A stretch of DNA of 56,303 nucleotides from Anaerolineae bacterium. GTDB taxonomy: Bacteria > Chloroflexota > Anaerolineae > B4-G1 > DUEL01. Positions 13,099-56,303 of the stretch are shown here, one piece after another. Both the position numbers and the translations under genes were made by a program. The stretch's first letter is position 1. Each line of letters starts with the position of its first letter. Under the pieces are notes generated by a model, which saw only the letters and a list, made by a program, of their open reading frames with translations, did not search any database and had not been told where the DNA came from. The stretch is taken from the NCBI GenBank assembly GCA_034435295.1, contig DAOTYD010000239.1, forward strand, positions 1 to 56,303, in the 5' to 3' direction.

Positions 13099-13110
13099 GG
13101 TTGCCTCCTC

Positions 13111-13133
13111 GCTTATCGCTTATCGCTTATCGC
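13111..13133. repeat. Heptamer tandem repeat (GCTTATC)x3
   Basis: gcttatcgcttatcgcttatcgc lies in the 5' UTR of the acylase gene. It belongs to the GCGATAA/GCGTATC family seen at 5 other loci. Confidence 0.8.
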
Positions 13134-40066: not shown

Positions 40067-40148
40067 TGAGGAACCCGCCGGATAACAAGCTGGTGGAAAT
40101 GGCAGCGCCTGGCCAGGTGCAGGGGGCGACCCGTTGGGTTGCCACGTA

Positions 40149-40254
40149 GGGGCGAGGCGGTGCCTCGCCCGTGCAACGGGCAAGGCACCGGCTCGCCCTA
40201 CAACGGGCGAGGCGCCGGCTCACCCGTGCAACGGGCGAGCCACCGGCTCGCCCC
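40149..40254. repeat. Four tandem ~28-nt hairpin units (GGGCGAGSC-NNN-GSCTCGCCC)
   Basis: Units start at about 40149, 40178, 40205 and 40233. The first and last stems are perfect 9-bp inverted repeats. The last unit overlaps the stop codon at 40254-56. Confidence 0.75.
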
Positions 40255-40802
40255 TACCCCTCGAAAAACGGCAACTGCTCGCTATCCCACCACGTCTGGT
40301 TGCTGTCCAGATAATCGATCGTGTTCTGCAGCAGCCGGTAGTGCGCTTCTTCCTGCTCAACCAGGAACTGATAGGCGGCGCGGGCGTGGGGGTCGTCCGC
40401 CGCCTGAGCGCCCTGGAAGTAGAGCGCCCGCGAGAGCTCTTCCGTCTCCAGTCCGTAACGCAACGCGGCGATGTCGCCCTCCAGCGAGATCTCGCGCTCC
40501 GGCGTAAAGACCGGCGCCACCTCCGGCGGCTCGTCGCCTGGCAGAGCGGGGTTGGCCGGATCGAAGGCCAGCGGCTGGGCCATGGCCTGCTCATAGGGCA
40601 GCCAGCCGCGCCCATCCTCCAACGCGCCGTACTCGACCAGCAAGAGATGCAGGTGGTCGGCCTCCTGGCGGGCCAGGTCAAGGAACATGGCCCTGCCGCG
40701 CGGGTCCGAGGCACGCCCGGCGACCTCCATATAGAAACGGTAGCCGTCCCGCTCCAGGCTCATGCCACGCCGCAGGATGCCCTGGGGAGTGCTCCAGTCC
40801 AT
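40254..40802 (-). CDS. Ferritin-like (rubrerythrin diiron-domain) protein
   Basis: LERDGYRFYMEVA...ARQEADHLHLL and a second half ETEELSRALY...LVEQEEAHYRLL (ExxH pairs). Confidence 0.7.
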   Translation of the reverse strand: MDWSTPQGILRRGMSLERDGYRFYMEVAGRASDPRGRAMFLDLARQEADHLHLLLVEYGALEDGRGWLPYEQAMAQPLAFDPANPALPGDEPPEVAPVFTPEREISLEGDIAALRYGLETEELSRALYFQGAQAADDPHARAAYQFLVEQEEAHYRLLQNTIDYLDSNQTWWDSEQLPFFEG

Positions 40803-40817
40803 CTCGTCGTCTCCTTT

Positions 40818-41339
40818 TCACACCGATTCGAGCGTAAACTCGCGCACGTCAAACCAGAAACCGGTCTGGGTCATATAGTCGTACTCGCCCTGGAGGATGG
40901 TGCGATGGCTCCGCTCCTGCTCGACCAGGTAGGCGTACATGGCTCTGGCGTCGGCGTCCTGGGTCGCTTCCATCTGGCGGCTGTAAAAGTCGATCGACTC
41001 TTCCTCGGCGCGGATGCCGCGCTGCAGCGCCGCCAGTTCGCGCTGCGGCAGCTCCAGCGGCTGCCCGCCCTTGACCGGCGGAAAGACCGGCAGCCGACGG
41101 GAGGGGTTGAGCGCCGCGACCTGCTCCGGCGTCGGCCAGCCCTTTTCTTCCAGCAGCGACGCCTTGACCGACTCGAAGAGGCGCAGGTGCGCCGCCTCGT
41201 CGCGGGCCAGCGTCTCGAACATGCGCCGCCCGGCGGCGTCGTCGGTCTGGCGCGCCGCCTGGCTGTAAAAGGCCAGCCCGTCCTTCTCGATCTGAATGGC
41301 TGTCTCGATAGCCTGCAAAGCCTGATCGATTGTTGTCAT
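40818..41339 (-). CDS. Ferritin-like (rubrerythrin diiron-domain) protein
   Basis: IEKDGLAFYSQAA...ARDEAAHLRLF...AEEESIDFY...LVEQERSHRTIL. Confidence 0.75.
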   Translation of the reverse strand: MTTIDQALQAIETAIQIEKDGLAFYSQAARQTDDAAGRRMFETLARDEAAHLRLFESVKASLLEEKGWPTPEQVAALNPSRRLPVFPPVKGGQPLELPQRELAALQRGIRAEEESIDFYSRQMEATQDADARAMYAYLVEQERSHRTILQGEYDYMTQTGFWFDVREFTLESV

Positions 41340-41359
41340 TTTACCTCTTTCGTAACAGC

Positions 41360-41399
41360 CTATTCTCCCGCAGGTTTGTTCTAACCTGCGGGAGGGTAG
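41360..41399. repeat. Hairpin of the CTAyyCTCCCGCAGGTT / AACCTGCGGGAGGGTAG family
   Basis: 17-nt arms (41360-76 and 41383-99) with a 6-nt loop, between the FTR-like stop and the ferritin-like start. Arms match the 3634/3716 pair. Confidence 0.75.
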
Positions 41400-41408
41400 C
41401 TGAAAAGC

Positions 41409-41915
41409 TCACCAAAAACGCTCAAAGCGCTCCCGTTTGGCCTTGCAGATGGGACAGACGCCGGGCGGGTTTTCGCGGGCGCAGAGGTAGCCGCAGACGC
41501 GGCAGCGCCAGACGGGCAGGGCAGCAGGGGCCGGTCCGCCGGCCGGCTGCGCAGGGCGGTTCTGCGGGCGCTGCGCCGGGTCGGGCGAGCGGCGCTCAGG
41601 GATAGGCTGCAAGGGCTGCTCGCCGCGCAGCACCTGGTCGGAGACGTAGAGGGCGCAGTAACAGGCGCCCCACTCGGCCAGGTCAGCGTCGCGATAGTCA
41701 CATGGGCAGATAATGTCCAGGTCGGCCTGTTTGTCGCCTGCCGCCAGGCGACAGGGACAGGCCCAGTAGCCATAGCGCTGCTCGTTGACCAGGAGGCTAT
41801 GCACCAGTTCGCGGGTAAACTCGCGGTCAGGGTTGAGGTGATAGCCCGCCGCTTCGGCCTCCTGAGTCAGCCGCTCGTAGAGCGCGTCGACCTGTTCTTC
41901 GGAGACGGTGCTCAT
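41409..41915 (-). CDS. Ferredoxin:thioredoxin-reductase catalytic-subunit-like protein fused to a C-terminal rubredoxin-type domain
   Basis: WACPCR-X14-CPCDY-X12-CYC (FTRc-like CPC...CPC...C[H/Y]C). Pro-rich linker. WRCRVCGY...[11 protein letters not shown]. Confidence 0.8.
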
Positions 41916-42205
41916 CTTCCCAGCGCCTCCCTGATCTCTTCCGGGCGAAAGCCGACGATGGCGCGACGGTTGTCCAGGACCAGGGTGGGGAAAGAGACGG
42001 AGGGGTTCCATCGGCGCACCTGCTCGACCACCGCTTCGCGCTCCTGGCCCTGCAGGAGATCGACGTAGAAGAAATCGAACGTCACGCCCAGCTCCTCGAG
42101 AAGCTGACGCGTCCGCCTGCACCAGACGCAGGTCGAAAGGCCATAGAAGGTGATTTGTGGTCCGGGGCGCGCCCCCTGGACGCTGCCGCTGGCTATGGTC
42201 ATCAT
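41912..42205 (-). CDS. Glutaredoxin/NrdH-like thioredoxin-fold protein (CVWC)
   Basis: [24 protein letters not shown]...[12 protein letters not shown] overlap with the FTR-like gene. Confidence 0.75.
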
Positions 42206-42210
42206 CCCCT

Positions 42211-42393
42211 CTACCTCTTCTGGCCGATCTGCGGGTCGATCTGGCCCGGGCCGCCGCAGTCGGGGGTGTAGCAGGTCGCGTCGATAAAGACACACTTTTT
42301 CTGACAGCCCGGGCAGACCTCGGGCGGCGTCGCTGCCTGCAGGGTGTAGCCACACTCGGAACACTTCCACCAGTTTTGAGCTTCTTGATCCAT
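42211..42393 (-). CDS. Cys-rich zinc-ribbon/rubredoxin-like small protein
   Basis: 60 aa with WKCSECGY...CPGCQKKC...CYTPDC (7 Cys). Tightly packed between the dsrE-like and grx-like genes. Confidence 0.55.
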
Positions 42394-42404
42394 GATTCCC
42401 TCCG

Positions 42405-42833
<429 letters not shown>

Positions 42834-42879
42834 TTTGCCCTCCTTGCAGGCCTTTTTTCCCCTCTTGCCATTCCTGCCA

Positions 42880-42911
42880 GTGCTGGCGGGTCACAGACCC
42901 GCCAGGAGCGA
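42880..42911. repeat. REP-like element GTGCTGGCGGGTCACAGACCCGCCAGGAGCGA
   Basis: Hairpin ggcgggt-cacag-acccgcc. A near-identical copy lies at 45332-45363. The core, with an inverted loop, also occurs at 32361, 32408 and 45302. Confidence 0.7.
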
Positions 42912-42996
42912 AAAAACTCCGTGTACCTCCGCGCTCGTCCGCATCCCCTTTTCTGCGCTCTCAGCGCACCGGTCTGAAGGGGATAAGGGCAGATGT

Positions 42997-43260
42997 CTAC
43001 CGCTGAATGCGAATGATCCAGCGGTCCTCTTCTTCTTCGATGCTCAGCACCTGGAGACCCAGAGCTTTGGCGGCCATCGGAATCTCCTCTTTCGAGGCAG
43101 GGTGAGTGCCCACCACCGTCACAATATCGCCCGGCGCGGCGCGGCGCAACGCCTTGCGCGTCTCCACCAGCGGCACCGGACAGGTCTGGCCACAGACGTC
43201 GATCCTGATCTCGACGCCAGGGCAGACAGGCCTGCTCACGTCAACTGTGATCTCTGGCAT
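42997..43260 (-). CDS. tusA: TusA/SirA-family sulfurtransferase
   Basis: DVCGQTCPVPLVETRKAL (CPxP motif). Start trimmed to MPEITV. Confidence 0.8.
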   Translation of the reverse strand: MPEITVDVSRPVCPGVEIRIDVCGQTCPVPLVETRKALRRAAPGDIVTVVGTHPASKEEIPMAAKALGLQVLSIEEEEDRWIIRIQR

Positions 43261-43271
43261 CTTTCCCCCTC

Positions 43272-43907
43272 TCAACCGGCAAACTCGACCACGACCTCTT
43301 TGACATCCCAGCGCGAGCCGATCTTTTCGACAATCTCCTCGCGGATGTTGTTGGCGAACTGGTGATCAGGCGGCAGGTCCATCACGACACGCACGACGCC
43401 GTCGGCAATCTCGATCTCCTTGACCAGTTTGGTGCGCACCACGTCCAGGCCGACAACGGGGTTCATGACGTGCTTGAGCCGCCTGCGCACGACTTCCTCG
43501 GTGGTCGGTGTGCGTTCTTTGACCAGGCCATGGCGCTCCTCGTAATTCTCGATCGCCGCGCGCAGGCCGTCCACTGCCAGCACCGAGCAGTGGGTCTTGA
43601 GCGCGGGCAGTCCGCCCAGCGCCTCCGCCGCCTGCTGCCAGGTGATCTCTTTGGCCTCGGCCAGCGTCTTGCCCTTGGCCAGCTCGGTGATGATCGAACC
43701 GGTGGCGATGTTGGACGCACAGCCGTAGGACTCGAACTTGATGTCGGTGATGCGCTGGGTCGCCTCGTCCACCTTGAGATAGACGGCAACCATGTCGCCG
43801 CAGGCGGGGCTTCCCTCCACCGATTTGGCATCCGCATCCTCGATCCGCCCCACGTTGCGCGGGTTGCGGAAGTGTTCCATCACGATCTCACTGTATGGCA
43901 ATGGCAT
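43272..43907 (-). CDS. IscU/NifU-N Fe-S scaffold fused to a DUF59-like C-terminal domain
   Basis: HFRNPRNVG...GSPACGDMV...ESYGCASNIA...THCSVLA, then a VMNPVVGLDVVRTKLVKEIEI... DUF59-like region lacking the usual Cys. Confidence 0.85.
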   Translation of the reverse strand: MPLPYSEIVMEHFRNPRNVGRIEDADAKSVEGSPACGDMVAVYLKVDEATQRITDIKFESYGCASNIATGSIITELAKGKTLAEAKEITWQQAAEALGGLPALKTHCSVLAVDGLRAAIENYEERHGLVKERTPTTEEVVRRRLKHVMNPVVGLDVVRTKLVKEIEIADGVVRVVMDLPPDHQFANNIREEIVEKIGSRWDVKEVVVEFAG

Positions 43908-43923
43908 AGTGTCCTCCTTACTC

Positions 43924-44035
43924 GCGTATCGCGTATCGCTTATCGCTTATCGCGTATCGCTTATCGCCTGATGTGATATGCGATTAGCGATATGCAATAA
44001 GCGATTAGCGATCAGCGATCAGCGATCAGCGATAG
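43924..44035. repeat. Inverted pair of heptamer arrays: (GCGTATC/GCTTATC)x6, spacer, (GCGATNA)x8
   Basis: Left array 43924-43967 and right array 43980-44035, in opposite orientation. The right array contains the last 5 codons and the stop of nifS. Confidence 0.8.
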
Positions 44036-45203
44036 ACGATTCTTTCCCCAGCGGGCTGATGCGCCGCAGTTGGGCAACCACTTCGGCCACGGCGTCAGCC
44101 ACGGCGTCGACGTCCCCTTCCTCGTTGAAGCGGCCAAAGGTAAAGCGCACCGAGCCATGCGCGCGCTCGTGGTTGCCGCCAATGCCCAGGATGACATGGC
44201 TGGCCTCCAGCGAGCGGCTGAAGCAGGCCGAGCCGGTGCTGACGGCAAAGCCGCGCATGTCCAGGTGCAGCAGCAGCGACTCGCCCTCGACAAAACGGAA
44301 AGAGACGTTGACATTGTGCGGCAGGCGCAGCGTGCGGTGCCCGTTGACGCGGCTGTGCGGAATCTGCAACAGCCGCTCGAACAGCCGGTCGCGCATGGCC
44401 TGCAGGCGGGCGGTCTCCTCCGGCGTGACCAGCTCCACAGCGCGGGCAAAGCCCACGGCGCTGGGGATGTCCTCCACACCGGCGCGCAGGTCGAACTCTT
44501 GAAAGCCGCCGTCCATCCACTTGCGGATGGGCGTGCCGCTGCGCACATAGAGGCCACCAATGCCCTTGGGGCCGTGGATCGTGTGCGCGGCAACGGTCAC
44601 CAGATCGACCGGCACCTGGCGCACGTCCAGCGGCAGGCGCGGGAAGCTGTGGGTGGCGTCCGTGTGGAAGAGCACACCCCTTTCGCGGCAGATCGCGGCG
44701 ATGGCCGCCAGGTCCTGCAACGTGCCGATCTCCTGGTTGGCCGCCTGGATCGAGACCAGGATCGTCTCGTCGGTGATCGAGTCGCGCAGATGGTCCAGGT
44801 CGATCCGCCCGTCCTCATCAACAGCCACGCGGGTCACCCGAAAGCCCTGCCGTTCCAGAGCGCGGGCGCTGTGCAGGACAGGGAAATCTTCGATCGGGCT
44901 GATGATCAGATGGCGGCCCTTTTTCTCACCCAGAGCCAGGGCGACACCTTTGAGCGCCATGTTGCTGGACTCGGTGCTGCCAGAGGTAAAGATGAACTCT
45001 TCCTGGTTGGCTCCCAGCGCAGAGGCGATGCGGGCGCGGGCGTCATCCAGCGCGTCGCGGGCATCGATGCCCAGCGAATAGCCAAACTGGGACGTAGCCA
45101 CGGCATAGACGTCGAAAAAGTAGGGCTTCATCGCCTCCAGCACGCGCTCGTCCAGCCGCGTCGCCGCCGCATTGTCGAGATAGACGATCTTTTCGAAGAA
45201 CAC
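44019..45203 (-). CDS. nifS: Cysteine desulfurase (NifS/IscS class)
   Basis: YLDNAAAT, ANQEIGT, HTDA, SAHTIHGPKGIGGLY-like and SGSACFS. GTG start, with GGAGG upstream. Confidence 0.9.
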   Translation of the reverse strand: MFFEKIVYLDNAAATRLDERVLEAMKPYFFDVYAVATSQFGYSLGIDARDALDDARARIASALGANQEEFIFTSGSTESSNMALKGVALALGEKKGRHLIISPIEDFPVLHSARALERQGFRVTRVAVDEDGRIDLDHLRDSITDETILVSIQAANQEIGTLQDLAAIAAICRERGVLFHTDATHSFPRLPLDVRQVPVDLVTVAAHTIHGPKGIGGLYVRSGTPIRKWMDGGFQEFDLRAGVEDIPSAVGFARAVELVTPEETARLQAMRDRLFERLLQIPHSRVNGHRTLRLPHNVNVSFRFVEGESLLLHLDMRGFAVSTGSACFSRSLEASHVILGIGGNHERAHGSVRFTFGRFNEEGDVDAVADAVAEVVAQLRRISPLGKESSIADR

Positions 45204-45236
45204 GGAAACAGCCTCCGCTCGTCGATTCTGGCAATT

Positions 45237-45265
45237 ATTGTATCACGCCACAGGAATAAAGTCAA
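45237..45265 (-). promoter_or_regulatory. Sigma70 promoter of the nifS-iscU-tusA unit
   Basis: On the minus strand, TTGACT (45265-45260), a 17-nt spacer, then TACAAT (45242-45237). Confidence 0.5.
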
Positions 45266-45301
45266 TGGATTTCTATTATATCTTTGTTAGACCTTTGTTC
45301 C

Positions 45302-45418
45302 GGCGGGGTCTGTGACCCCGCCGTCCGGTCCGTGCTGGTCGGTCACAAACCCGCCAGGAGCGAGGCCCCCTCCCCGGCAGCTTCGCCGTTGTCCTCTCCC
45401 CGCAAGCGGGGAGAGGAC
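45302..45418. repeat. Cluster of three REP-like hairpins
   Basis: ggcggggtctgtgaccccgcc (45302-22). gtgctggtcggtcacaaacccgccaggagcga (45332-63). Perfect 13-bp stem gtcctctccccgc-aa-gcggggagaggac (45391-418). Confidence 0.75.
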
Positions 45419-45475
45419 AATCCGCCGTAGGGGAATGGGGCGAAGATACAGCGCAGCGGCAGAGACGTGCGCCGC

Positions 45476-45970
45476 CTAGAGCGTCGCTTCTCCGCCGCGC
45501 AGCAGTTTGGCCAGGCGCGTGGCGTGGCCCTTCTCCTCGCGGATGATCTCGTCCACCGCGCCGCGCTCCGATTCGGGCATCATCTCGCGGAGGTCGTAGT
45601 AAAAGAGCAGCGAGTCCTTCTCCAGCCCCAGCGCCATACGCAGCGCCTGCTCGGTGCTCTCCACCTGATCGGCTACCGCCACGGCCTTGTCCGGACCGTA
45701 GAACATGGCGTTGCCCAACGCCGCCTGGATGTAGAGCTCATACTCCTCCCAGTACGGCCCGCTCAGGAGCGGCGGCTCGGCGAGCTTGAGCCGGTCAGCC
45801 AGCTTCTGGAACGTCTCATAGTGGCGCTGTTCCCACTGGGCCAGGGTCAAGAGCAGCTCTCTCACCTCGACATGGTTGATCTTGCGCGCGGCGGCCTCGT
45901 AAAAGGCCTGGCCGTTGCGCTCCAGGCGCATGGCAATGTCCAGCGCCTCAGAAGCGGTAAATCCTGCCAT
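45476..45970 (-). CDS. Ferritin-like (rubrerythrin diiron-domain only) protein
   Basis: MRLERNGQAFYEAA...AQWEQRHYETF...LGLEKDSLLFY...IREEKGHATRL. Confidence 0.7.
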   Translation of the reverse strand: MAGFTASEALDIAMRLERNGQAFYEAAARKINHVEVRELLLTLAQWEQRHYETFQKLADRLKLAEPPLLSGPYWEEYELYIQAALGNAMFYGPDKAVAVADQVESTEQALRMALGLEKDSLLFYYDLREMMPESERGAVDEIIREEKGHATRLAKLLRGGEATL

Positions 45971-45983
45971 CGTTCAACTCCTC

Positions 45984-46487
45984 TCAATCGATGCGAACGA
46001 ACCTGTCCGGTTTGGCCCCACAGACGGGGCAATCGTCTTCCGGCCTGCCTTCGGAAACATAGCCGCACACCTCGCAGACATAGTAGGTGCACGGTTCTTC
46101 GCGCAGCATGCAACCAACGGCCACTTTGTAAAGCCGGGCGTGCATCTCCTCGACGTCGCGTGCCTGGCTGAAGGCCAGCGCCGCCCGCCGGTCGCCCTCT
46201 TCCTCCGCCTCCTGGATAAAGCGCGGATAGGCGTTCTGGCTGGCGGCGGACTCGCGCTCGAACGATGACTGCAGGTTCGATTCGGTGTCCTTCACCACCA
46301 CATCGCCCAGCAGGCGCAGGGCCCTGTCGGCGTGAATGCCCTCGGCGTAGGCCACGGCGCGGAAGAGGCGGGCGATATCGGGATAGCCCTCCTCATCCGC
46401 CTTGCGGGCGTAGGCCAGCAATCGGCGATGGGCCTTGGCCTCGCCGACAAAGGCCTCGTAGAGGTTGCGGTTTGTCTTTTCGCCCAT
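45984..46487 (-). CDS. rbr: Rubrerythrin
   Basis: Diiron domain (FVGEAKAHRR..AEGIHA...EEMHARLY) plus C-terminal rubredoxin-like CEVCGY...CPVCGA. Confidence 0.85.
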   Translation of the reverse strand: MGEKTNRNLYEAFVGEAKAHRRLLAYARKADEEGYPDIARLFRAVAYAEGIHADRALRLLGDVVVKDTESNLQSSFERESAASQNAYPRFIQEAEEEGDRRAALAFSQARDVEEMHARLYKVAVGCMLREEPCTYYVCEVCGYVSEGRPEDDCPVCGAKPDRFVRID

Positions 46488-46490
46488 CGG

Positions 46491-46994
46491 CTAGAACTTG
46501 ATGAACCTGTCCTTGGGCGCGCCGCACAGCGGGCAGCGGTCGGGCGCCTCGCCCTCCACCGTCCAGCCGCAGACCTCGCAGACGTGAATGGGGCCGACCT
46601 CGACATCCTGCCCGGCCATGACGGCCTGGCGGGCGCGCTGGTACATGCCGGCGTGGACCTTTTCGGCCTCGTAGGCGAACTTGTGCGAGCGCAGCGCCAC
46701 CTTTTCCTCCTGTAGCTCGGCCACAGCCTGGAAGGCGGGGTACATCTCGTCGACCTCGTAGGTCTCGCCGTTGATGGCCTCCTGCAGGTTCTCCTCGCTC
46801 TGGTTGATGCCGCCCAGGGCGCGCAGGTGGCTGGTGGCGTGGACGAGCTCAGCCCTGGCCACAGCGCGGAAAAGGCGCGCGACCTCGGGCAGGCCCTCTT
46901 TCTCTGCCTTGTCAGCATAGATTGTGTAGCGGGTGAAGGCCTGGCTCTCCCCGGCGAAAGCGGCCTCCAGGTTGGAACGACTCATCTTGTGCAT
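46491..46994 (-). CDS. rbr: Rubrerythrin
   Basis: FAGESQAFTRY..ARAELVHA..YEAEKVHAGMY plus CEVCGW...CPLCGA. Confidence 0.88.
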   Translation of the reverse strand: MHKMSRSNLEAAFAGESQAFTRYTIYADKAEKEGLPEVARLFRAVARAELVHATSHLRALGGINQSEENLQEAINGETYEVDEMYPAFQAVAELQEEKVALRSHKFAYEAEKVHAGMYQRARQAVMAGQDVEVGPIHVCEVCGWTVEGEAPDRCPLCGAPKDRFIKF

Positions 46995-47044
46995 CTTTCC
47001 TCTCCTTTCTGATCAAAATCCATGTAATCTGTGGCTAAAAAACC

Positions 47045-48259
47045 TCACCCGAGCAGCTCCTTGAGATCGAAATCGTCATCCAGCAATCGGTCGACATAGG
47101 CCGAGACGTCCACCCCGCCTTCGAGCAGGCGGCGGACGGCCAGCGTGCGCTCGCGCTCGTTGAGCAGAATGGCGCCAATGATCCGCCCGTCCTGGAGGAC
47201 GAACTTGCGATAGTGGCGATGGGCCAGGTCGACGTGACGCAGCACGGTGTAGGAGGAGTCCTCGCCAGCACAGAGGCCCAGCGAGGTCAGCTCGGCGCCG
47301 GCGACTTTGAGCGTGGTGAAGGGCAGCGTGCCCCCGTAGACAGCGCTGCCCGGCGCGACCATGTTCGCTGCCGCCACGCGGGCCTGCTCGACCGCCGCCG
47401 GGACAATGCCGTAGAGCCGCCCGCCCGCCTCGGCGACGTCGCCTGCCGCATAGACGCCCTCGGCGCTGGTCTGCAGGTGTGCGTCCACAATCACCGCGCG
47501 GCCGATAGCCAGCCCGGCCTGCCGCGCCAGCGTCAGCTCGGGCCGCCAGCCGGCAGCACAGACGACCATATCGGCGGGGAGCTCGTGGCCGTCGCGCAGG
47601 CGCACGGCGCGCACAGCGCCATCCCCCAGGATAGCTTCCGTGGCAACGCCGGTGAGCACCTCGATGCCCAGGCCCTCGACCAGCTTCTGCAGCAGCGCTG
47701 CCCCCTCGCGATCGACCTGGCGGGGCAGCAAATAGTCGGCGGCTTCCAGAACGGTCACTCCGGCGCCCAGGGCGCGGACGGCGCGCGCCGTTTCCAGGCC
47801 GAGCAATCCTCCGCCGATCACGACGGCATGGCGCCCCTGACGGGCATGCTCGCGGATGGCACGGGCGTCGTCGAGCGTGCGCAGGGTGAACACGCCGCGC
47901 TGCGCCGCCCCATCGACCGGCAACATCCAGGCATAGCCCCCCGTTGCCAGCAATAGCCGGTCATAAGCGACGGCCACGCCATCTTCCAGGCGCAGCCGCC
48001 GCGCGGCCGTGTCCAGCTCTGCCACCCGGCTGTTCAGATGAACGCGGATGCCCTGTTCCTCGTACCAGTCAGGCGGGCGGTGGAGGATGTCTACCTCGGC
48101 AACCTCGCCGGCGATCAAAGCGGGTAGCTGCGGACGGCGGTAGTAGGGATAAGGCTCGGCGGCGTAGATGTGCAGGTCAGCGCCCGGCTCGGCCGCAGCG
48201 ATGGCCTGGGCCGCCATCACACCGGCGACGCCATTGCCGACGATGACATAGCGGGTCAT
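47045..48259 (-). CDS. FAD-dependent NAD(P)H:rubredoxin oxidoreductase-like pyridine-nucleotide-disulfide oxidoreductase
   Basis: VIVGNGVAGVMAA (FAD). VVIGGGLLGLETA (NAD). YAAGDVAE. Immediately downstream of the rubredoxin gene. Confidence 0.8.
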   Translation of the reverse strand: MTRYVIVGNGVAGVMAAQAIAAAEPGADLHIYAAEPYPYYRRPQLPALIAGEVAEVDILHRPPDWYEEQGIRVHLNSRVAELDTAARRLRLEDGVAVAYDRLLLATGGYAWMLPVDGAAQRGVFTLRTLDDARAIREHARQGRHAVVIGGGLLGLETARAVRALGAGVTVLEAADYLLPRQVDREGAALLQKLVEGLGIEVLTGVATEAILGDGAVRAVRLRDGHELPADMVVCAAGWRPELTLARQAGLAIGRAVIVDAHLQTSAEGVYAAGDVAEAGGRLYGIVPAAVEQARVAAANMVAPGSAVYGGTLPFTTLKVAGAELTSLGLCAGEDSSYTVLRHVDLAHRHYRKFVLQDGRIIGAILLNERERTLAVRRLLEGGVDVSAYVDRLLDDDFDLKELLG

Positions 48260-48270
48260 ACGAAGCGGCT

Positions 48271-48429
48271 TTACCCTACCTGCTCGAACATATCCTTGCC
48301 TGCGCCGCAGTCGGGGCAGACCCAGTCATCGGGCAGGTCTTCGAAAGCAGTGCCAGGCTCGATACCCCCTTGCGGATCGCCAACAGCGGGGTCGTAAACG
48401 TAACCACAGACCAGACATTCCCACTTCAT
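48271..48429 (-). CDS. rub: Rubredoxin (52 aa; below the ORF-track size cut-off)
   Basis: My own translation of the complement: [60 protein letters not shown]. Canonical CxxCG...CPxCG. Confidence 0.85.
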
Positions 48430-48495: not shown

Positions 48496-48524
48496 ATTAT
48501 AACGTGTGTCGCTGAAAACGTCAA
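48496..48524 (-). promoter_or_regulatory. Sigma70 promoter of the rubredoxin/rubrerythrin operon
   Basis: On the minus strand, TTGACG (48524-48519), a 17-nt spacer, then TATAAT (48501-48496). Confidence 0.55.
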
Positions 48525-48579: not shown

Positions 48580-48799
48580 CCCTGGGAGCGCGGACGTCCC
48601 CTCCGCGCTGCGGCGGGCGGGGACGCCCGCGCTCCCAGAAAACACGGATGCCCCCTCCGCCCTGCGGCGGGCGGGGACGCCCGCGCTCCCAGGAAACACG
48701 GATGCCCCGTCCGCCCTGCGGCGGGCGGGGACGCCCGCGCTCCCAGGAAACACGGATGCCCCCTCCGCGCTGCGGCGGGCGGGGACGCCCGCGCTCCCC
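48580..48799. repeat. 54-nt tandem repeat, about 3.8 copies
   Basis: Equivalent positions at 48602, 48656, 48710 and 48764. Each unit holds the hairpin gcgggc-gggga-cgcccgc. It explains the long ORFs in all frames here. Confidence 0.85.
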
Positions 48800-50827: not shown

Positions 50828-50847
50828 CAACACGAACGGCACGAATT

Positions 50848-50889
50848 GCGATAAGCGATATGCGATGTACGATAAGCGATATGCGAAGG
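50848..50889. repeat. Heptamer tandem repeat (GCGATAA-like)x6
   Basis: gcgataa gcgatat gcgatgt acgataa gcgatat gcgaagg, in the aspS/glnA spacer. Confidence 0.75.
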
Positions 50890-54864: not shown

Positions 54865-56091
54865 ATGCGTAAGCGAGACTATATCGGCATGAACGTCTAC
54901 TGGTTCGGCCTGGCCTTTCTGTGGAACGGCCTGCACCCCATCATCCTGCCGGCAATGCTGTTGGGCTTTGTGCCGGAAGCGCTCAAGAACACTTACCTGG
55001 GCAGCCTCACCTTCGGCGGTCTGATCCTGGCCATGGTCATACAACCGCTGGCCGGCGCGCTCAGCGACCGCACGCGCTCGCGCTGGGGGCGGCGACGGCC
55101 CTGGATCCTGCTGGGTGTAATTCTCACCCTGATCGTTCTGGCCATTATGGCCCGCGCCAGCAGCCTGGGGGTGCTGATCCTGGCCTACGTTCTGCTGCAG
55201 CTCGTCTCCAATACCGCCCATGGCCCCGCCCAGGGCCTCATCCCCGACCTGGTGCCGCAGGAGCGGCATGGGCTGGCAGCGGGGATCAAAAACCTCTTTG
55301 AAATGAGCGGCCTGATCGTGACCTCGCTGGTGGCCGGCAAGCTGATGAGCGATGGCAACGCCGCGCTGGCCCTGACCGTCACCGGCGTCGTCGTCACGGC
55401 GGCCGCAGGGGTCACCCTGGTGGGCACGCCCGAAGCGCCCGCCAGCGGCGCCGGCGGCCCGGCCGCTGTCCAGGCGCTGCGCGAGACCCTGCGCGTCGAC
55501 CTGAGCCGTGCTCCTGGCTACGCCCGTCTGCTCGTCTCCCGCTTCCTGATCCTGTTGGGCATCTATGCCGTGCAGGCCTTTGCCCAGTATTATATCCGCG
55601 ACCGGCTGCAAGTGCCAGACCCCGCCGCCGTTACCGGCAACCTCATGGCTACCATCGGCCTGGCGCTGACGGTGCTGGTCTTTCCCGCCGGCTACCTCTC
55701 CGACCGCTTTGGCCGTCTACGGCTGAACCAGTTGGCGGGCATCCTGGCTGCGCTGGGCGTGCTGATGCTCATTCCCATCCGCACGGTTCCCCCTCTCTAC
55801 ATCGCCGGGACAATCATCGGCGCAGCGACGGGCATCTTTTTGAGCGTCAACTGGGCGCTGGCGACCGACATGATTCCCCAGGACGAGGCCGGCAAGTACC
55901 TGGGCCTCTCCAACCTGGCGACGGCCGGCGCCGGAGCCGCCAGCCGCCTGGGCGGCCCGCTCATCGACGGCCTGAACGCCCTCCGCCCTGGCGCTTTCCT
56001 GGGCTACCCGGCGCTCATGCTGCTGGCGGCGCTCAGTATCGCTGTGGGTACGTGGCTGGCCAATCGCTTATCGCGGATCGCGTATCGCTAA
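54865..56091 (+). CDS. MFS transporter
   Basis: 12 hydrophobic segments. GALSDRTRSRWGRRRPW loop motif. The last 8 codons (SRIAYR) lie in the heptamer repeat. Confidence 0.8.
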   Translation: MRKRDYIGMNVYWFGLAFLWNGLHPIILPAMLLGFVPEALKNTYLGSLTFGGLILAMVIQPLAGALSDRTRSRWGRRRPWILLGVILTLIVLAIMARASSLGVLILAYVLLQLVSNTAHGPAQGLIPDLVPQERHGLAAGIKNLFEMSGLIVTSLVAGKLMSDGNAALALTVTGVVVTAAAGVTLVGTPEAPASGAGGPAAVQALRETLRVDLSRAPGYARLLVSRFLILLGIYAVQAFAQYYIRDRLQVPDPAAVTGNLMATIGLALTVLVFPAGYLSDRFGRLRLNQLAGILAALGVLMLIPIRTVPPLYIAGTIIGAATGIFLSVNWALATDMIPQDEAGKYLGLSNLATAGAGAASRLGGPLIDGLNALRPGAFLGYPALMLLAALSIAVGTWLANRLSRIAYR

Positions 56092-56303
56092 TCGCGTATC
56101 GCGTATCGCGTATCGCGTATCGCGTATCGCATATCACGTATCGCGTATCGCGTATCGCGTATCGCATATCGCATATCGCGTATCGCGTATCGCGTATCGC
56201 ATATCGGATATCGCGTATCGCGTATCGTGAATTGCGGTCGACGATTGGCGAGAGGCGATAAGCGAGAGGCGATAAGCGAGAGGCGATAAGCGAGAGGCGA
56301 TAG
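56066..56303. repeat. Large heptamer array (GCGTATC)x~23 followed by an opposite-orientation (GCGAGAG GCGATAA)x4, running off the window
   Basis: 56066-56227 has period 7 with point variants (gcatatc, gcggatc, acgtatc). 56248-56303 has period 14. Confidence 0.9.

Follow-up and report, generated by a model that had tools for sequence, protein, structure and literature searches.

An Anaerolineae operon joins a lysine-less NifS-like protein and sulfur-carrier genes to a glutaredoxin-FDR pair in a putative Fe-S repair island

A run of nine minus-strand genes was analyzed in contig DAOTYD010000239.1 (56,303 nt; this whole stretch is called the window, and locus coordinates are positions in it). 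The host is an uncultured anaerobic Anaerolineae (Chloroflexi) bacterium. As a whole, the locus is best explained as an iron-sulfur (Fe-S) core of the MIS (minimal iron-sulfur) type that has been joined, in one operon, to a glutaredoxin-like protein (Grx) with its ferredoxin:disulfide reductase (FDR) partner and to diiron proteins, giving an island for oxygen stress and Fe-S repair. We put the probability of this reading at roughly 0.5. It is built on a NifS-like protein in which the lysine of active cysteine desulfurases is replaced and on the sulfur-carrier genes that accompany it. The nine genes are as follows:

44019-45203, minus strand: NifS/IscS-like protein, 394 aa (PF00266, full length, E 2.7e-67)
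43272-43907, minus strand: IscU-DUF59 fusion, 211 aa (PF01592, E 4.5e-43, and PF01883, E 5.9e-13)
42997-43260, minus strand: TusA-family sulfur carrier, 87 aa (PF01206, E 1.7e-22; active site TCPVP)
42405-42833, minus strand: DsrE2-like protein (PF13686/COG2210), 142 aa (PF13686, E 7e-35)
42211-42393, minus strand: rubredoxin-like mini-protein with seven Cys, 60 aa (weak PF21349)
41912-42205, minus strand: methanoredoxin-type Grx-like protein, CVWC, 97 aa (PF00462)
41409-41915, minus strand: FDR, an FTR catalytic domain with a C-terminal rubredoxin domain, 168 aa (PF02943 and PF21349)
40818-41339, minus strand: rubrerythrin-family diiron protein 1 (ferL1), erythrin-like and without a rubredoxin domain, 173 aa (PF02915, E 2.7e-11)
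40254-40802, minus strand: erythrin-like diiron protein 2 (ferL2), 182 aa (PF02915, E 1.3e-09)

An earlier sequence-only reading of this DNA had placed nine same-strand open reading frames (ORFs) here. An ORF check of the sequence agrees with it, and every domain that it named was recovered by a Pfam scan. Gene calls made independently by JGI and ENA on contigs from this organism have lengths of 394, 211, 87, 142, 60, 96/97, 168, 173 and 182 aa, which match the nine ORFs. It was also right that the combination differs from the standard isc, suf and nif operons: the scaffold is an IscU N-domain with DUF59, and no component of ISC (IscR-IscSUA-HscBA-Fdx), SUF (SufBCD-SufS-SufE/U) or NIF (three-domain NifU) is found among the nine genes. 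The genes are co-oriented and, since there is one promoter-like site and the junctions are short or overlapping, the sequence is compatible with a single operon and a single transcript.

The NifS-like protein has the aminotransferase class V fold (PF00266 over its full length), and its closest solved relative is Archaeoglobus fulgidus IscS2 (PDB 4EB5, E 5.5e-95). The name "cysteine desulfurase" is true at the fold level only. At the position of E. coli K206, the lysine that forms the Schiff base with pyridoxal phosphate (PLP), the protein has T, and at H104, the PLP-stacking His, it has D. Both changes are seen in ungapped alignment, with AAHTIHGPKG against SAHKMYGPKG/SGHKIYGPKG of active enzymes in the K206 region and IEDF against IEHH in the H104 region. 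Further substitutions are Q at N155, H at Q183 and V at T243; R354 is retained. The catalytic cysteine of the flexible loop (C328 equivalent) is retained as well, as Cys327 in STGSACFS, and its column is Cys in all full-length homologues. Scores fall under the NCBIfam equivalog cut-offs for NifS (TIGR03402, 433 against 530.75) and IscS (NF010611, 381 against 548; TIGR02006, 371 against 643).

These substitutions are kept in about 55 NifS-like orthologues from independent assemblies. Among 160 fetched loci, all orthologues adjacent to TusA-DsrE2 have D104, Q155 and H183, with T (sometimes L) at 206. Because the substitutions recur in every one of them, an assembly error cannot explain the loss of the lysine. 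Of the 150 nearest representatives at 50% identity from a library of 1.8 billion proteins, 131 have the lysine and 19 do not; the latter bear varied replacements, and the lysine has therefore been lost in several clades. The window's own clade is narrow in this survey.

A. fulgidus IscS has no catalytic lysine and no desulfurase activity, and it gives a Cys ligand to the cluster on IscU (PMC7585200; PMC8918507). By its residues and by this analogy, the window protein is very probably not a desulfurase. As in A. fulgidus IscS, it would be without bound PLP and would ligate an IscU [2Fe-2S] cluster through Cys. Public databases name such lysine-less proteins "cysteine desulfurase" or "PLP-dependent enzyme", labels that probably misstate their chemistry, and where the metabolism of anaerobic Chloroflexota, WOR-3 and Ignavibacteria has been reconstructed from such labels, the account of Fe-S cluster synthesis may be wrong. 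The sequence-only reading had persulfide flowing from cysteine through NifS to TusA and DsrE. That flow is not supported, since the protein has Thr in place of the PLP lysine and Asp in place of His104, a state like that of the inactive A. fulgidus IscS (PMC7585200).

Which genes travel with the lysine-less protein was followed in two sets of loci (numbered L003 and so on). The first is anchored on the DsrE2-like gene and holds 80 metagenomic loci, all close relatives (73-82% identity), so that its numbers cover essentially one clade. TusA is directly upstream of the DsrE2-like gene in 59 of the 69 loci with sufficient flank. A NifS-like gene occurs at 57 loci and is accompanied by IscU-DUF59 in almost every case. 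There are two gene orders, represented by 29 and 28 loci, and both leave the NifS-IscU pair and the TusA-DsrE2 pair intact. In total, over all the loci examined, a TusA and/or DsrE-family gene lies within 3 kb on the same strand at 61/61 lysine-less NifS-like ORFs, compared with 1/6 lysine-bearing ones. The second set is anchored on FDR, is not biased toward DsrE, and consists of 80 species-level genomes with an FDR homologue from many bacterial and archaeal phyla. Here TusA/DsrE neighbours occur at all 13 lysine-less NifS genes and at none of the five lysine-bearing ones. The sole lysine-bearing NifS with such neighbours (L112:1672-2991) is canonical and sits immediately upstream of a lysine-less NifS-IscU59-TusA-DsrE2 core; in that organism, this copy may be the enzyme that actually donates the sulfur. 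A second lysine-less clade, with the N205/D206 signature of A. fulgidus, is found in Ignavibacteria (L030, L046) and WOR-3 (L075), where the NifS gene is preceded by TusA and a different DsrE-family protein of 120 aa. Lysine-less NifS, IscU-DUF59, TusA and the DsrE2-like protein form a tight four-gene core.

The IscU part of the scaffold has Cys36, Asp38, Cys63 and His106-Cys107 in its translation, the fused DUF59/FeS_assembly_P domain is Cys-less, and the fusion is conserved across the Anaerolineae and WOR-3 cassettes. TusA scores 79 bits with PF01206 (cut-off 28.6), and its active Cys is invariant in 84 homologues; with the E. coli TusA equivalog NF001423 it stays under the cut-off (31 against 78). 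A second, resolving Cys beside the active one was considered as a target of FDR/Grx and rejected, being present in only 50 of the 84 homologues. The DsrE2-like protein scores 120.7 bits with PF13686 and is under the DsrE2 equivalog NF047629 (65.6 against 210), so by sequence it is a relative of DsrE2 and no DsrE2 equivalog. Its single Cys101 is invariant in alignment A2, and the nearest structures are 2QS7 and 3PNX.

Since the sulfur carriers accompany the lysine-less NifS copies, and since there is no active desulfurase partner, unlike in the E. coli relay, TusA and DsrE may feed the NifS-like protein and IscU rather than receive sulfur from them. We consider the chances for this direction to be evenly balanced. 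Another explanation is that TusA, DsrE2 and the NifS-like protein serve sulfur traffic outside Fe-S assembly, such as tRNA or molybdopterin thiolation or the handling and detoxification of sulfane sulfur, thiosulfate or polysulfide, and that IscU is incidental. tRNA thiolation and dissimilatory sulfur oxidation are indeed the processes for which the TusA and DsrE families are best known, and genes for heavy-metal P-type ATPases and for YHS-like and SHOCT-like proteins often follow DsrE2. However, 51 of the 61 lysine-less NifS-like genes have IscU no more than 3 kb away, several of the remaining ones being cut off by contig ends, and in one clade IscU is fused to the Fe-S assembly domain DUF59. 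The WOR-3 operon contains Nfu and an Rrf2 regulator, and genes for MnmA, ThiI, MoaD/MoeB and sHdr/Dsr are not among the recurrent neighbour families. Traffic apart from Fe-S clusters is therefore improbable as the function of the core.

The order NifS-IscU59-TusA-DsrE2-[ZnR]-Grx-FDR, in which ZnR is the gene for the 60-aa mini-protein, is found in seven other Anaerolineae genomes (L003, L006 without DsrE2, L007, L009, L012, L019 and L049), and because of this recurrence the arrangement is beyond chance. A tight operon of the WOR-3 type reads TusA-DsrE2-NifS-IscU59-Nfu-Rrf2-Grx-FDR, and an Ignavibacteria operon reads OFOR-Rbr-OFOR-Prx-Prx-TusA-DsrE-NifS-IscU-Grx-FDR, where OFOR is 2-oxoacid:ferredoxin oxidoreductase. 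In L046, the only array with its spacing measured, the ORFs of IscU and Grx either adjoin or share about 10 nt. Lysine-less cassettes adjoin Grx-FDR in 13 of the 80 species-level genomes, from three phyla (Anaerolineae, WOR-3, Ignavibacteria). Among NifS-like genes near FDR, 13/18 are lysine-less, compared with the background of 19/150 (13%) in the nearest 50%-identity representatives. Since the juxtaposition recurs in three phyla and includes the tight WOR-3 and Ignavibacteria operons, it is plausible that the Fe-S and sulfur-carrier genes are functionally linked with the Grx-FTR pair.

The same loci show that the cassettes are separable units that have been joined repeatedly. The Grx gene is immediately upstream of FDR in 78 of the 80 FDR-anchored genomes, so this pair is self-standing, mostly without NifS. 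In the DsrE2-anchored loci with sufficient flank, FDR lies within 1.5 kb in 2/22 (order A) and is present in 0/12 (order B); three further cases are on truncated or distant contigs. The suggestion that the nine genes could be "one integrated module" is at best partly supported by these loci. The proposed synteny of a quartet of Grx, FTR-rubredoxin, zinc-ribbon and DsrE-like genes held in part, namely for the adjacent Grx-FDR pair and for the array in seven Anaerolineae, whereas the zinc-ribbon gene is optional and the DsrE2 core mostly occurs without FDR.

The Grx-FDR pair itself is not new. FDR matches M. acetivorans FDR (4TPU) over its full length (E 1.3e-67, residues 5-167) and has the motif CPC-x14-CPC-x12-CYC followed by a C-terminal Cys4 rubredoxin domain, with all 10 Cys invariant in alignment A1. 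The Grx-like protein matches M. mazei Grx (PDB 3NZN, E 3.3e-32) and methanoredoxin (5CAX, E 1.3e-29) with identical STCVWC, and it scores under the NCBIfam cut-offs of YruB and NrdH. Both proteins are also matched by 7PWE, in which Grx and FTR are naturally fused. NCBI calls the FDR relatives 'ferredoxin:glutaredoxin reductase', and the family has at least 7999 members among the best 8000 90%-identity clusters scored. By sequence, the two proteins are orthologues of Methanosarcina methanoredoxin and FDR, an already known system, and taken alone this part of the operon is ordinary.

M. acetivorans FDR and methanoredoxin have been described, and this FDR is ferredoxin-dependent (PMC7278568, PMC6262447). 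Near FDR, OFOR is found in 20/80 loci and free rubredoxin in 5/80; the other recurrent neighbours are SOR, FprA, peroxiredoxin, rubrerythrin and ferritin-like or erythrin-like genes. These neighbours fit ferredoxin as the electron donor and a role in oxygen stress. For the window FDR, it is this context that suggests ferredoxin-dependent reduction of a Grx- or Trx-type partner. The oxidative-stress setting assumed by the sequence-only reading is borne out by these neighbours and by the Rd-NROR-Rbr-Rbr-erythrin genes directly upstream of the nine-gene run.

The full model of that reading was more specific. An active NifS would pass persulfide to TusA and DsrE, free rubredoxin (48271-48429), charged by its NAD(P)H reductase, would drive the FTR-like enzyme to recycle Grx or carriers, and the nine genes would be one obligate module. 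All domains are present and co-oriented, the rubredoxin and NROR genes lie 3-6 kb upstream on the same strand, and E. coli IscS is reported to pass sulfur to TusA (PMC2854127). Nevertheless, the NifS-like protein lacks K206 and H104, a conserved state; the characterized FDR orthologue uses ferredoxin and has its rubredoxin center as an internal domain (PMC7278568, PMC6262447); free rubredoxin is the rarer neighbour of FDR; and the cassettes are separate in most genomes. Taken together, these data make the model very improbable. The electron chemistry also counts against it, as rubredoxin potentials near 0 mV are ill-suited to dithiol/disulfide couples near -200 to -270 mV.

A stronger competitor is that the cassettes are independent and are mere neighbours in one oxygen-stress regulon. 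Grx-FDR would then carry out general thiol-disulfide repair, NifS-IscU-TusA-DsrE2 would make Fe-S clusters alone, and the diiron proteins would scavenge peroxide. About 76% of Grx-FDR loci have no NifS, and about 85-90% of the loci with the DsrE2 core have no FDR; genes for SOR, FprA, Prx, Rbr and ferritin-like proteins abound around FDR. Work by Wei et al. in 2015 reportedly links the FDR system to ribonucleotide reductase. Methanosarcina FDR reduces thioredoxin (PMC6262447). Mere neighbourhood is harder to reconcile with a juxtaposition that is seen in three phyla, in differing gene orders and with two lysine-less NifS clades, with the tight packing of some arrays such as L046, with the Rrf2 (IscR-like) regulator gene inside the WOR-3 operon, or with the strong enrichment of the lysine-less type among NifS genes near FDR. 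We regard independence as possible, at odds well below even.

Under the reading as an Fe-S repair island, the parts would work as follows. The NifS-like protein, with its PLP lysine and stacking His lost, could not desulfurate cysteine and would serve as a partner and Cys ligand of the IscU-DUF59 scaffold. DsrE2-like Cys101 and TusA Cys27 would pass sulfane sulfur that does not originate from the NifS-like protein to NifS-like Cys327 and then to IscU-DUF59. Ferredoxin, FDR and Grx would hold the cysteines of carriers and scaffold reduced, with two electrons converting persulfide S(0) to cluster S(2-). The erythrin-like proteins would handle iron or peroxide. The operon would be used when oxygen damages Fe-S proteins and, with the adjacent Rd-NROR-rubrerythrin operon, would make up an island of oxygen-stress defence and Fe-S repair. 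Within this scheme, the idea that FDR and Grx take a direct part in Fe-S assembly, beyond sharing its regulation, is proposed tentatively. So is the broader suggestion, for which we would not claim better than modest odds, that lysine-less IscS/NifS marks a cysteine-independent Fe-S route with the TusA/DsrE relay as sulfur input and ferredoxin, FDR and Grx as electron donor. This route would be a fuller, bacterial version of MIS that has arisen at least twice (Thr/Leu-type and Asn-Asp-type).

Several points weigh against the island reading and its mechanism. We know of no biochemical function established for DsrE2-type proteins. The argument for lost desulfurase activity draws on residues and on the A. 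fulgidus precedent. FDR-Grx is beside the cassette in about 10-15% of the loci anchored on DsrE2 and in 16% of those anchored on FDR, the loci stand for about 3-5 lineages and are not phylogenetically independent, and shared regulation without direct electron transfer accounts for the adjacency equally well. The operon is interrupted by three long spacers (111, 163 and 69 nt). The sulfur could also derive in the end from cysteine by way of another enzyme, as the lysine-bearing NifS of L112 illustrates. Finally, MIS and SMS systems can use sulfide according to a 2026 review (PMC13066941), and use of free sulfide by systems of the A. fulgidus or MIS type would make a TusA/DsrE relay needless.

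The 60-aa mini-protein has seven invariant Cys (CxxC...CxxC with C34, C41 and C46) and a conserved tail motif in alignment A3. Its match to rubredoxin-type domains is limited to PF21349 (30 bits) and does not extend to PF00301; both CxxC knuckles are invariant, as are the three further Cys. The AF2 model has a pLDDT of 81, and the nearest folds are the rubredoxin domains of rubrerythrin and FDR with weak E values of 0.05-0.17. The family is small (33 clusters). The gene is present in the full Anaerolineae arrays L003, L006, L019 and L049 and was not detected by tblastn in L007, L009 and L012; it is also beside Grx-FDR in L008, about 5 kb upstream in L005, and alone in Desulfohalobiaceae. An obligate place in the cluster was therefore rejected, as three of seven full arrays are without a detected copy and solitary copies exist. 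The mini-protein is an optional cluster member. Both diiron proteins (40254-41339) have E...ExxH...E...ExxH motifs and no C-terminal rubredoxin domain, which makes them erythrin-like and not rubrerythrins proper. An orthologue of protein 1 follows FDR in L019, and orthologues of protein 2 with 65-70% identity are downstream of FDR in L004, L005, L008, L009, L012, L019 and L049.

The layout of the operon and its surroundings, with junction lengths taken from the sequence, is as follows:

45476..48429, minus strand: upstream neighbouring operon with rubredoxin, NROR-like reductase, two rubrerythrins and an erythrin-like gene (Pfam); own promoter-like site at 48496-48524
45324..45363, no strand assigned: copy 2 of a 40-nt palindromic element, upstream of the nifS promoter, 85% identical to 42872-42911
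45237..45265, minus strand: sigma-70-like promoter upstream of the nifS-like gene, TTGACT-17 nt-TACAAT, TG-extended, 10/12 consensus matches
43908..44018, minus strand: nifS-iscU junction, 111-nt spacer with two opposed 7-nt repeat arrays forming a long hairpin
iscU-tusA junction: 11 nt
42834..42996, minus strand: tusA-dsrE2 junction, 163-nt spacer containing a 40-nt palindromic element (42872-42911)
Junction of dsrE2 with the 7-Cys gene: 11 nt
Junction of the 7-Cys gene with grx: 5 nt
grx-FDR junction: 4-nt overlap, ATGA (FDR ATG in the Grx stop)
41340..41408, minus strand: FDR-ferL1 junction, 69-nt spacer; its 12-bp hairpin is G+C-rich and lacks a T-run (inverted repeat I17)
ferL1-ferL2 junction: 15 nt
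40146..40257, no strand assigned: repeat/hairpin block after the last gene, 28/55-nt units (TRF; inverted repeat I1, 53-nt arms)

In a sigma-70 consensus scan of this strand from 45.3 to 39.9 kb, the site at 45237..45265 is the sole promoter-like one, and the simple scan found no internal promoters within the operon beyond chance. A simple scan for internal terminators gave 7 terminator-like sites compared with 5.9 expected, each within genes or on the opposite strand. The block after the last gene folds as RNA at -96 kcal/mol (z = -8.3) and is likely the end of the transcription unit. The sequence-only reading had counted only two long spacers. Those at 42834-42996 and 41340-41408 are real, and a third, the 111-nt nifS-iscU spacer, was overlooked. 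It had also called the two REP-containing. The 163-nt spacer does hold a repeated palindrome, while the hairpin of the 69-nt spacer (-31.3 kcal/mol, z = -6.2) had no second copy in a repeat scan that covered 40100-45500 of the window.

The nifS-iscU spacer folds at -65.2 kcal/mol (z = -7.6) through inverted repeat I2 (46-nt arms, 83% complementary) made of heptamers found by TRF, and the hairpin stops right before the iscU Shine-Dalgarno sequence. In relatives this spacer varies in length or is occupied by a ferritin gene (PF00210), as is the case in several Anaerolineae at L049 (4218-4712), L009 (3473-3967) and six further loci. Because the ferritin gene is inserted exactly where the window has the heptamer hairpin, this junction is a variable hot spot. 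The heptamers belong to a tandem-repeat family with 7-nt units (TCGCTTA / TCGCGTA / GCGATAA / ATCGCGT) that is genome-wide and is found at 13109-13133, 43917-44040, 50847-50886 and 56063-56302; it extends into the final nifS codons, reaches up to 23.6 copies at the window end, and recalls the heptamer STRR repeats of cyanobacteria.

The tusA-dsrE2 spacer has an unexceptional fold (z = -1.2), and the consensus scan gave no promoter-like or terminator-like match in it. Its 40-nt palindrome has the core CTGGCGGGTC-ACA-GACCCGCCAG and occurs twice in the 56-kb window, compared with 0.04 copies expected, both times in non-coding DNA of the island. A role as a conserved operator was rejected since 0/162 related loci carry a copy and the host spacers are unconserved; the palindrome looks like a species-specific REP-like element instead. 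A riboswitch or leader RNA in the spacers was rejected as well, with no Rfam family found and, as the only hits, a sub-threshold miRNA model that fits the heptamer hairpin on both strands. Upstream, in the aspS-rd intergenic region, a 54-nt unit is repeated 3.9 times (95% matches) at 48591-48798, just upstream of the promoter-like site at 48496-48524, and could be a REP array or a series of regulator sites.

Other observations concern the neighbours of the cassettes in other genomes. A heavy-metal P-type ATPase gene (HMA domain, Pfam) often adjoins the DsrE2-like gene or separates the cassette from Grx-FDR, as in L121 (8469-10724) and at 15 further loci, and small ORFs near the cassette, such as L123:2753-2947 and L160:7376-7687, look by eye like YHS/TRASH-type and SHOCT-type proteins. 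These neighbours hint at a link of copper or metal stress to the Fe-S cassette. Around Grx-FDR, a nitroreductase-family gene (PF00881) is directly upstream in the archaeal locus L014 (9135-9698) and five other archaeal loci, and a 250-aa family that is nitroreductase-like by eye is downstream in L004 (922-1674) and six Anaerolineae loci; both are possible further clients or partners of FDR. One subgroup of FDR homologues, 205-220 aa in length, has two tandem rubredoxin domains (P0002, P0021, P0036, P0048 and P0113 in alignment A1). In WOR-3 L024:9078-9982, a nucleotidyltransferase/HEPN pair, toxin-antitoxin-like, splits Grx from FDR, a rare non-adjacent case. In Aminicenantes (L020, L021, L027 and L034, at about 10.7-12.4 kb), a long ORF with a lysine-bearing NifS-like domain, 485-580 aa if counted from the first possible start codon, is convergent to Grx-FDR and lies just after it, an association of NifS with FDR of a different kind.

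FDR/methanoredoxin and lysine-less IscS are each known. What we have not found described is the systematic coupling to TusA/DsrE and the repeated joining with an FDR cassette. A system of lysine-less IscS with TusA and DsrE, or a link between FDR and Fe-S assembly, was not found in the searchable literature, which leaves out most subscription papers and so is weak evidence for novelty. According to the 2026 review (PMC13066941), sulfur handling in MIS and SMS is only partly understood and the electron donors of both are unknown. The operon and its relatives offer candidates for the gaps in these minimal systems, namely TusA with a DsrE-family protein for sulfur and FDR with Grx for electrons, and these proteins are small, soluble and expressible.

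Among known systems, the core resembles A. fulgidus IscS-IscU (4EB5/4EB7/4HVK; MIS), which likewise has no PLP lysine, a retained loop Cys, an adjacent IscU-type scaffold and no HscBA, Fdx or IscA (PMC7585200; PMC13066941). The window clade differs in having Thr (or Leu) at the lysine position where A. fulgidus has Asp, in additionally lacking His104, in the fusion of IscU to DUF59, and in being invariably joined by TusA and a DsrE2-like protein; no report of such partners for the archaeal A. fulgidus pair was found in the literature searched. With M. acetivorans FDR (4TPU) and methanoredoxin (5CAX, 3NZN), the window pair shares CPC...CPC...CYC, the Cys4 rubredoxin domain, STCVWC, and Tyr where plant FTR has His. 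However, the window host is bacterial, presumably without coenzyme M, and its pair sits behind Fe-S assembly and sulfur-carrier genes.

The Rd-NROR-rubrerythrin peroxide defence of the Clostridium/Desulfovibrio type is resembled by the upstream operon (45476-48429), with its rubredoxin, NROR-like flavoprotein and two rubrerythrins; this operon has its own promoter-like site and is context only for FDR. A precedent for a disulfide reductase that feeds persulfide carriers is the thioredoxin-dependent persulfide reduction in thio-cofactor synthesis of Bacillus subtilis, although that case uses NADPH-TrxR/Trx, not ferredoxin-FDR/Grx, and is without genomic linkage. With the TusA/DsrE relays (E. 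coli IscS-TusA-TusBCD; DsrE3/TusA and DsrE2 of sulfur oxidisers), the window shares a CPxP TusA and a DsrE fold with a single conserved Cys. It differs from them in that its TusA and DsrE2-like proteins score under the equivalog cut-offs, in having no active desulfurase partner, and in that Dsr, sHdr and tRNA-thiolation genes are not among the neighbours.

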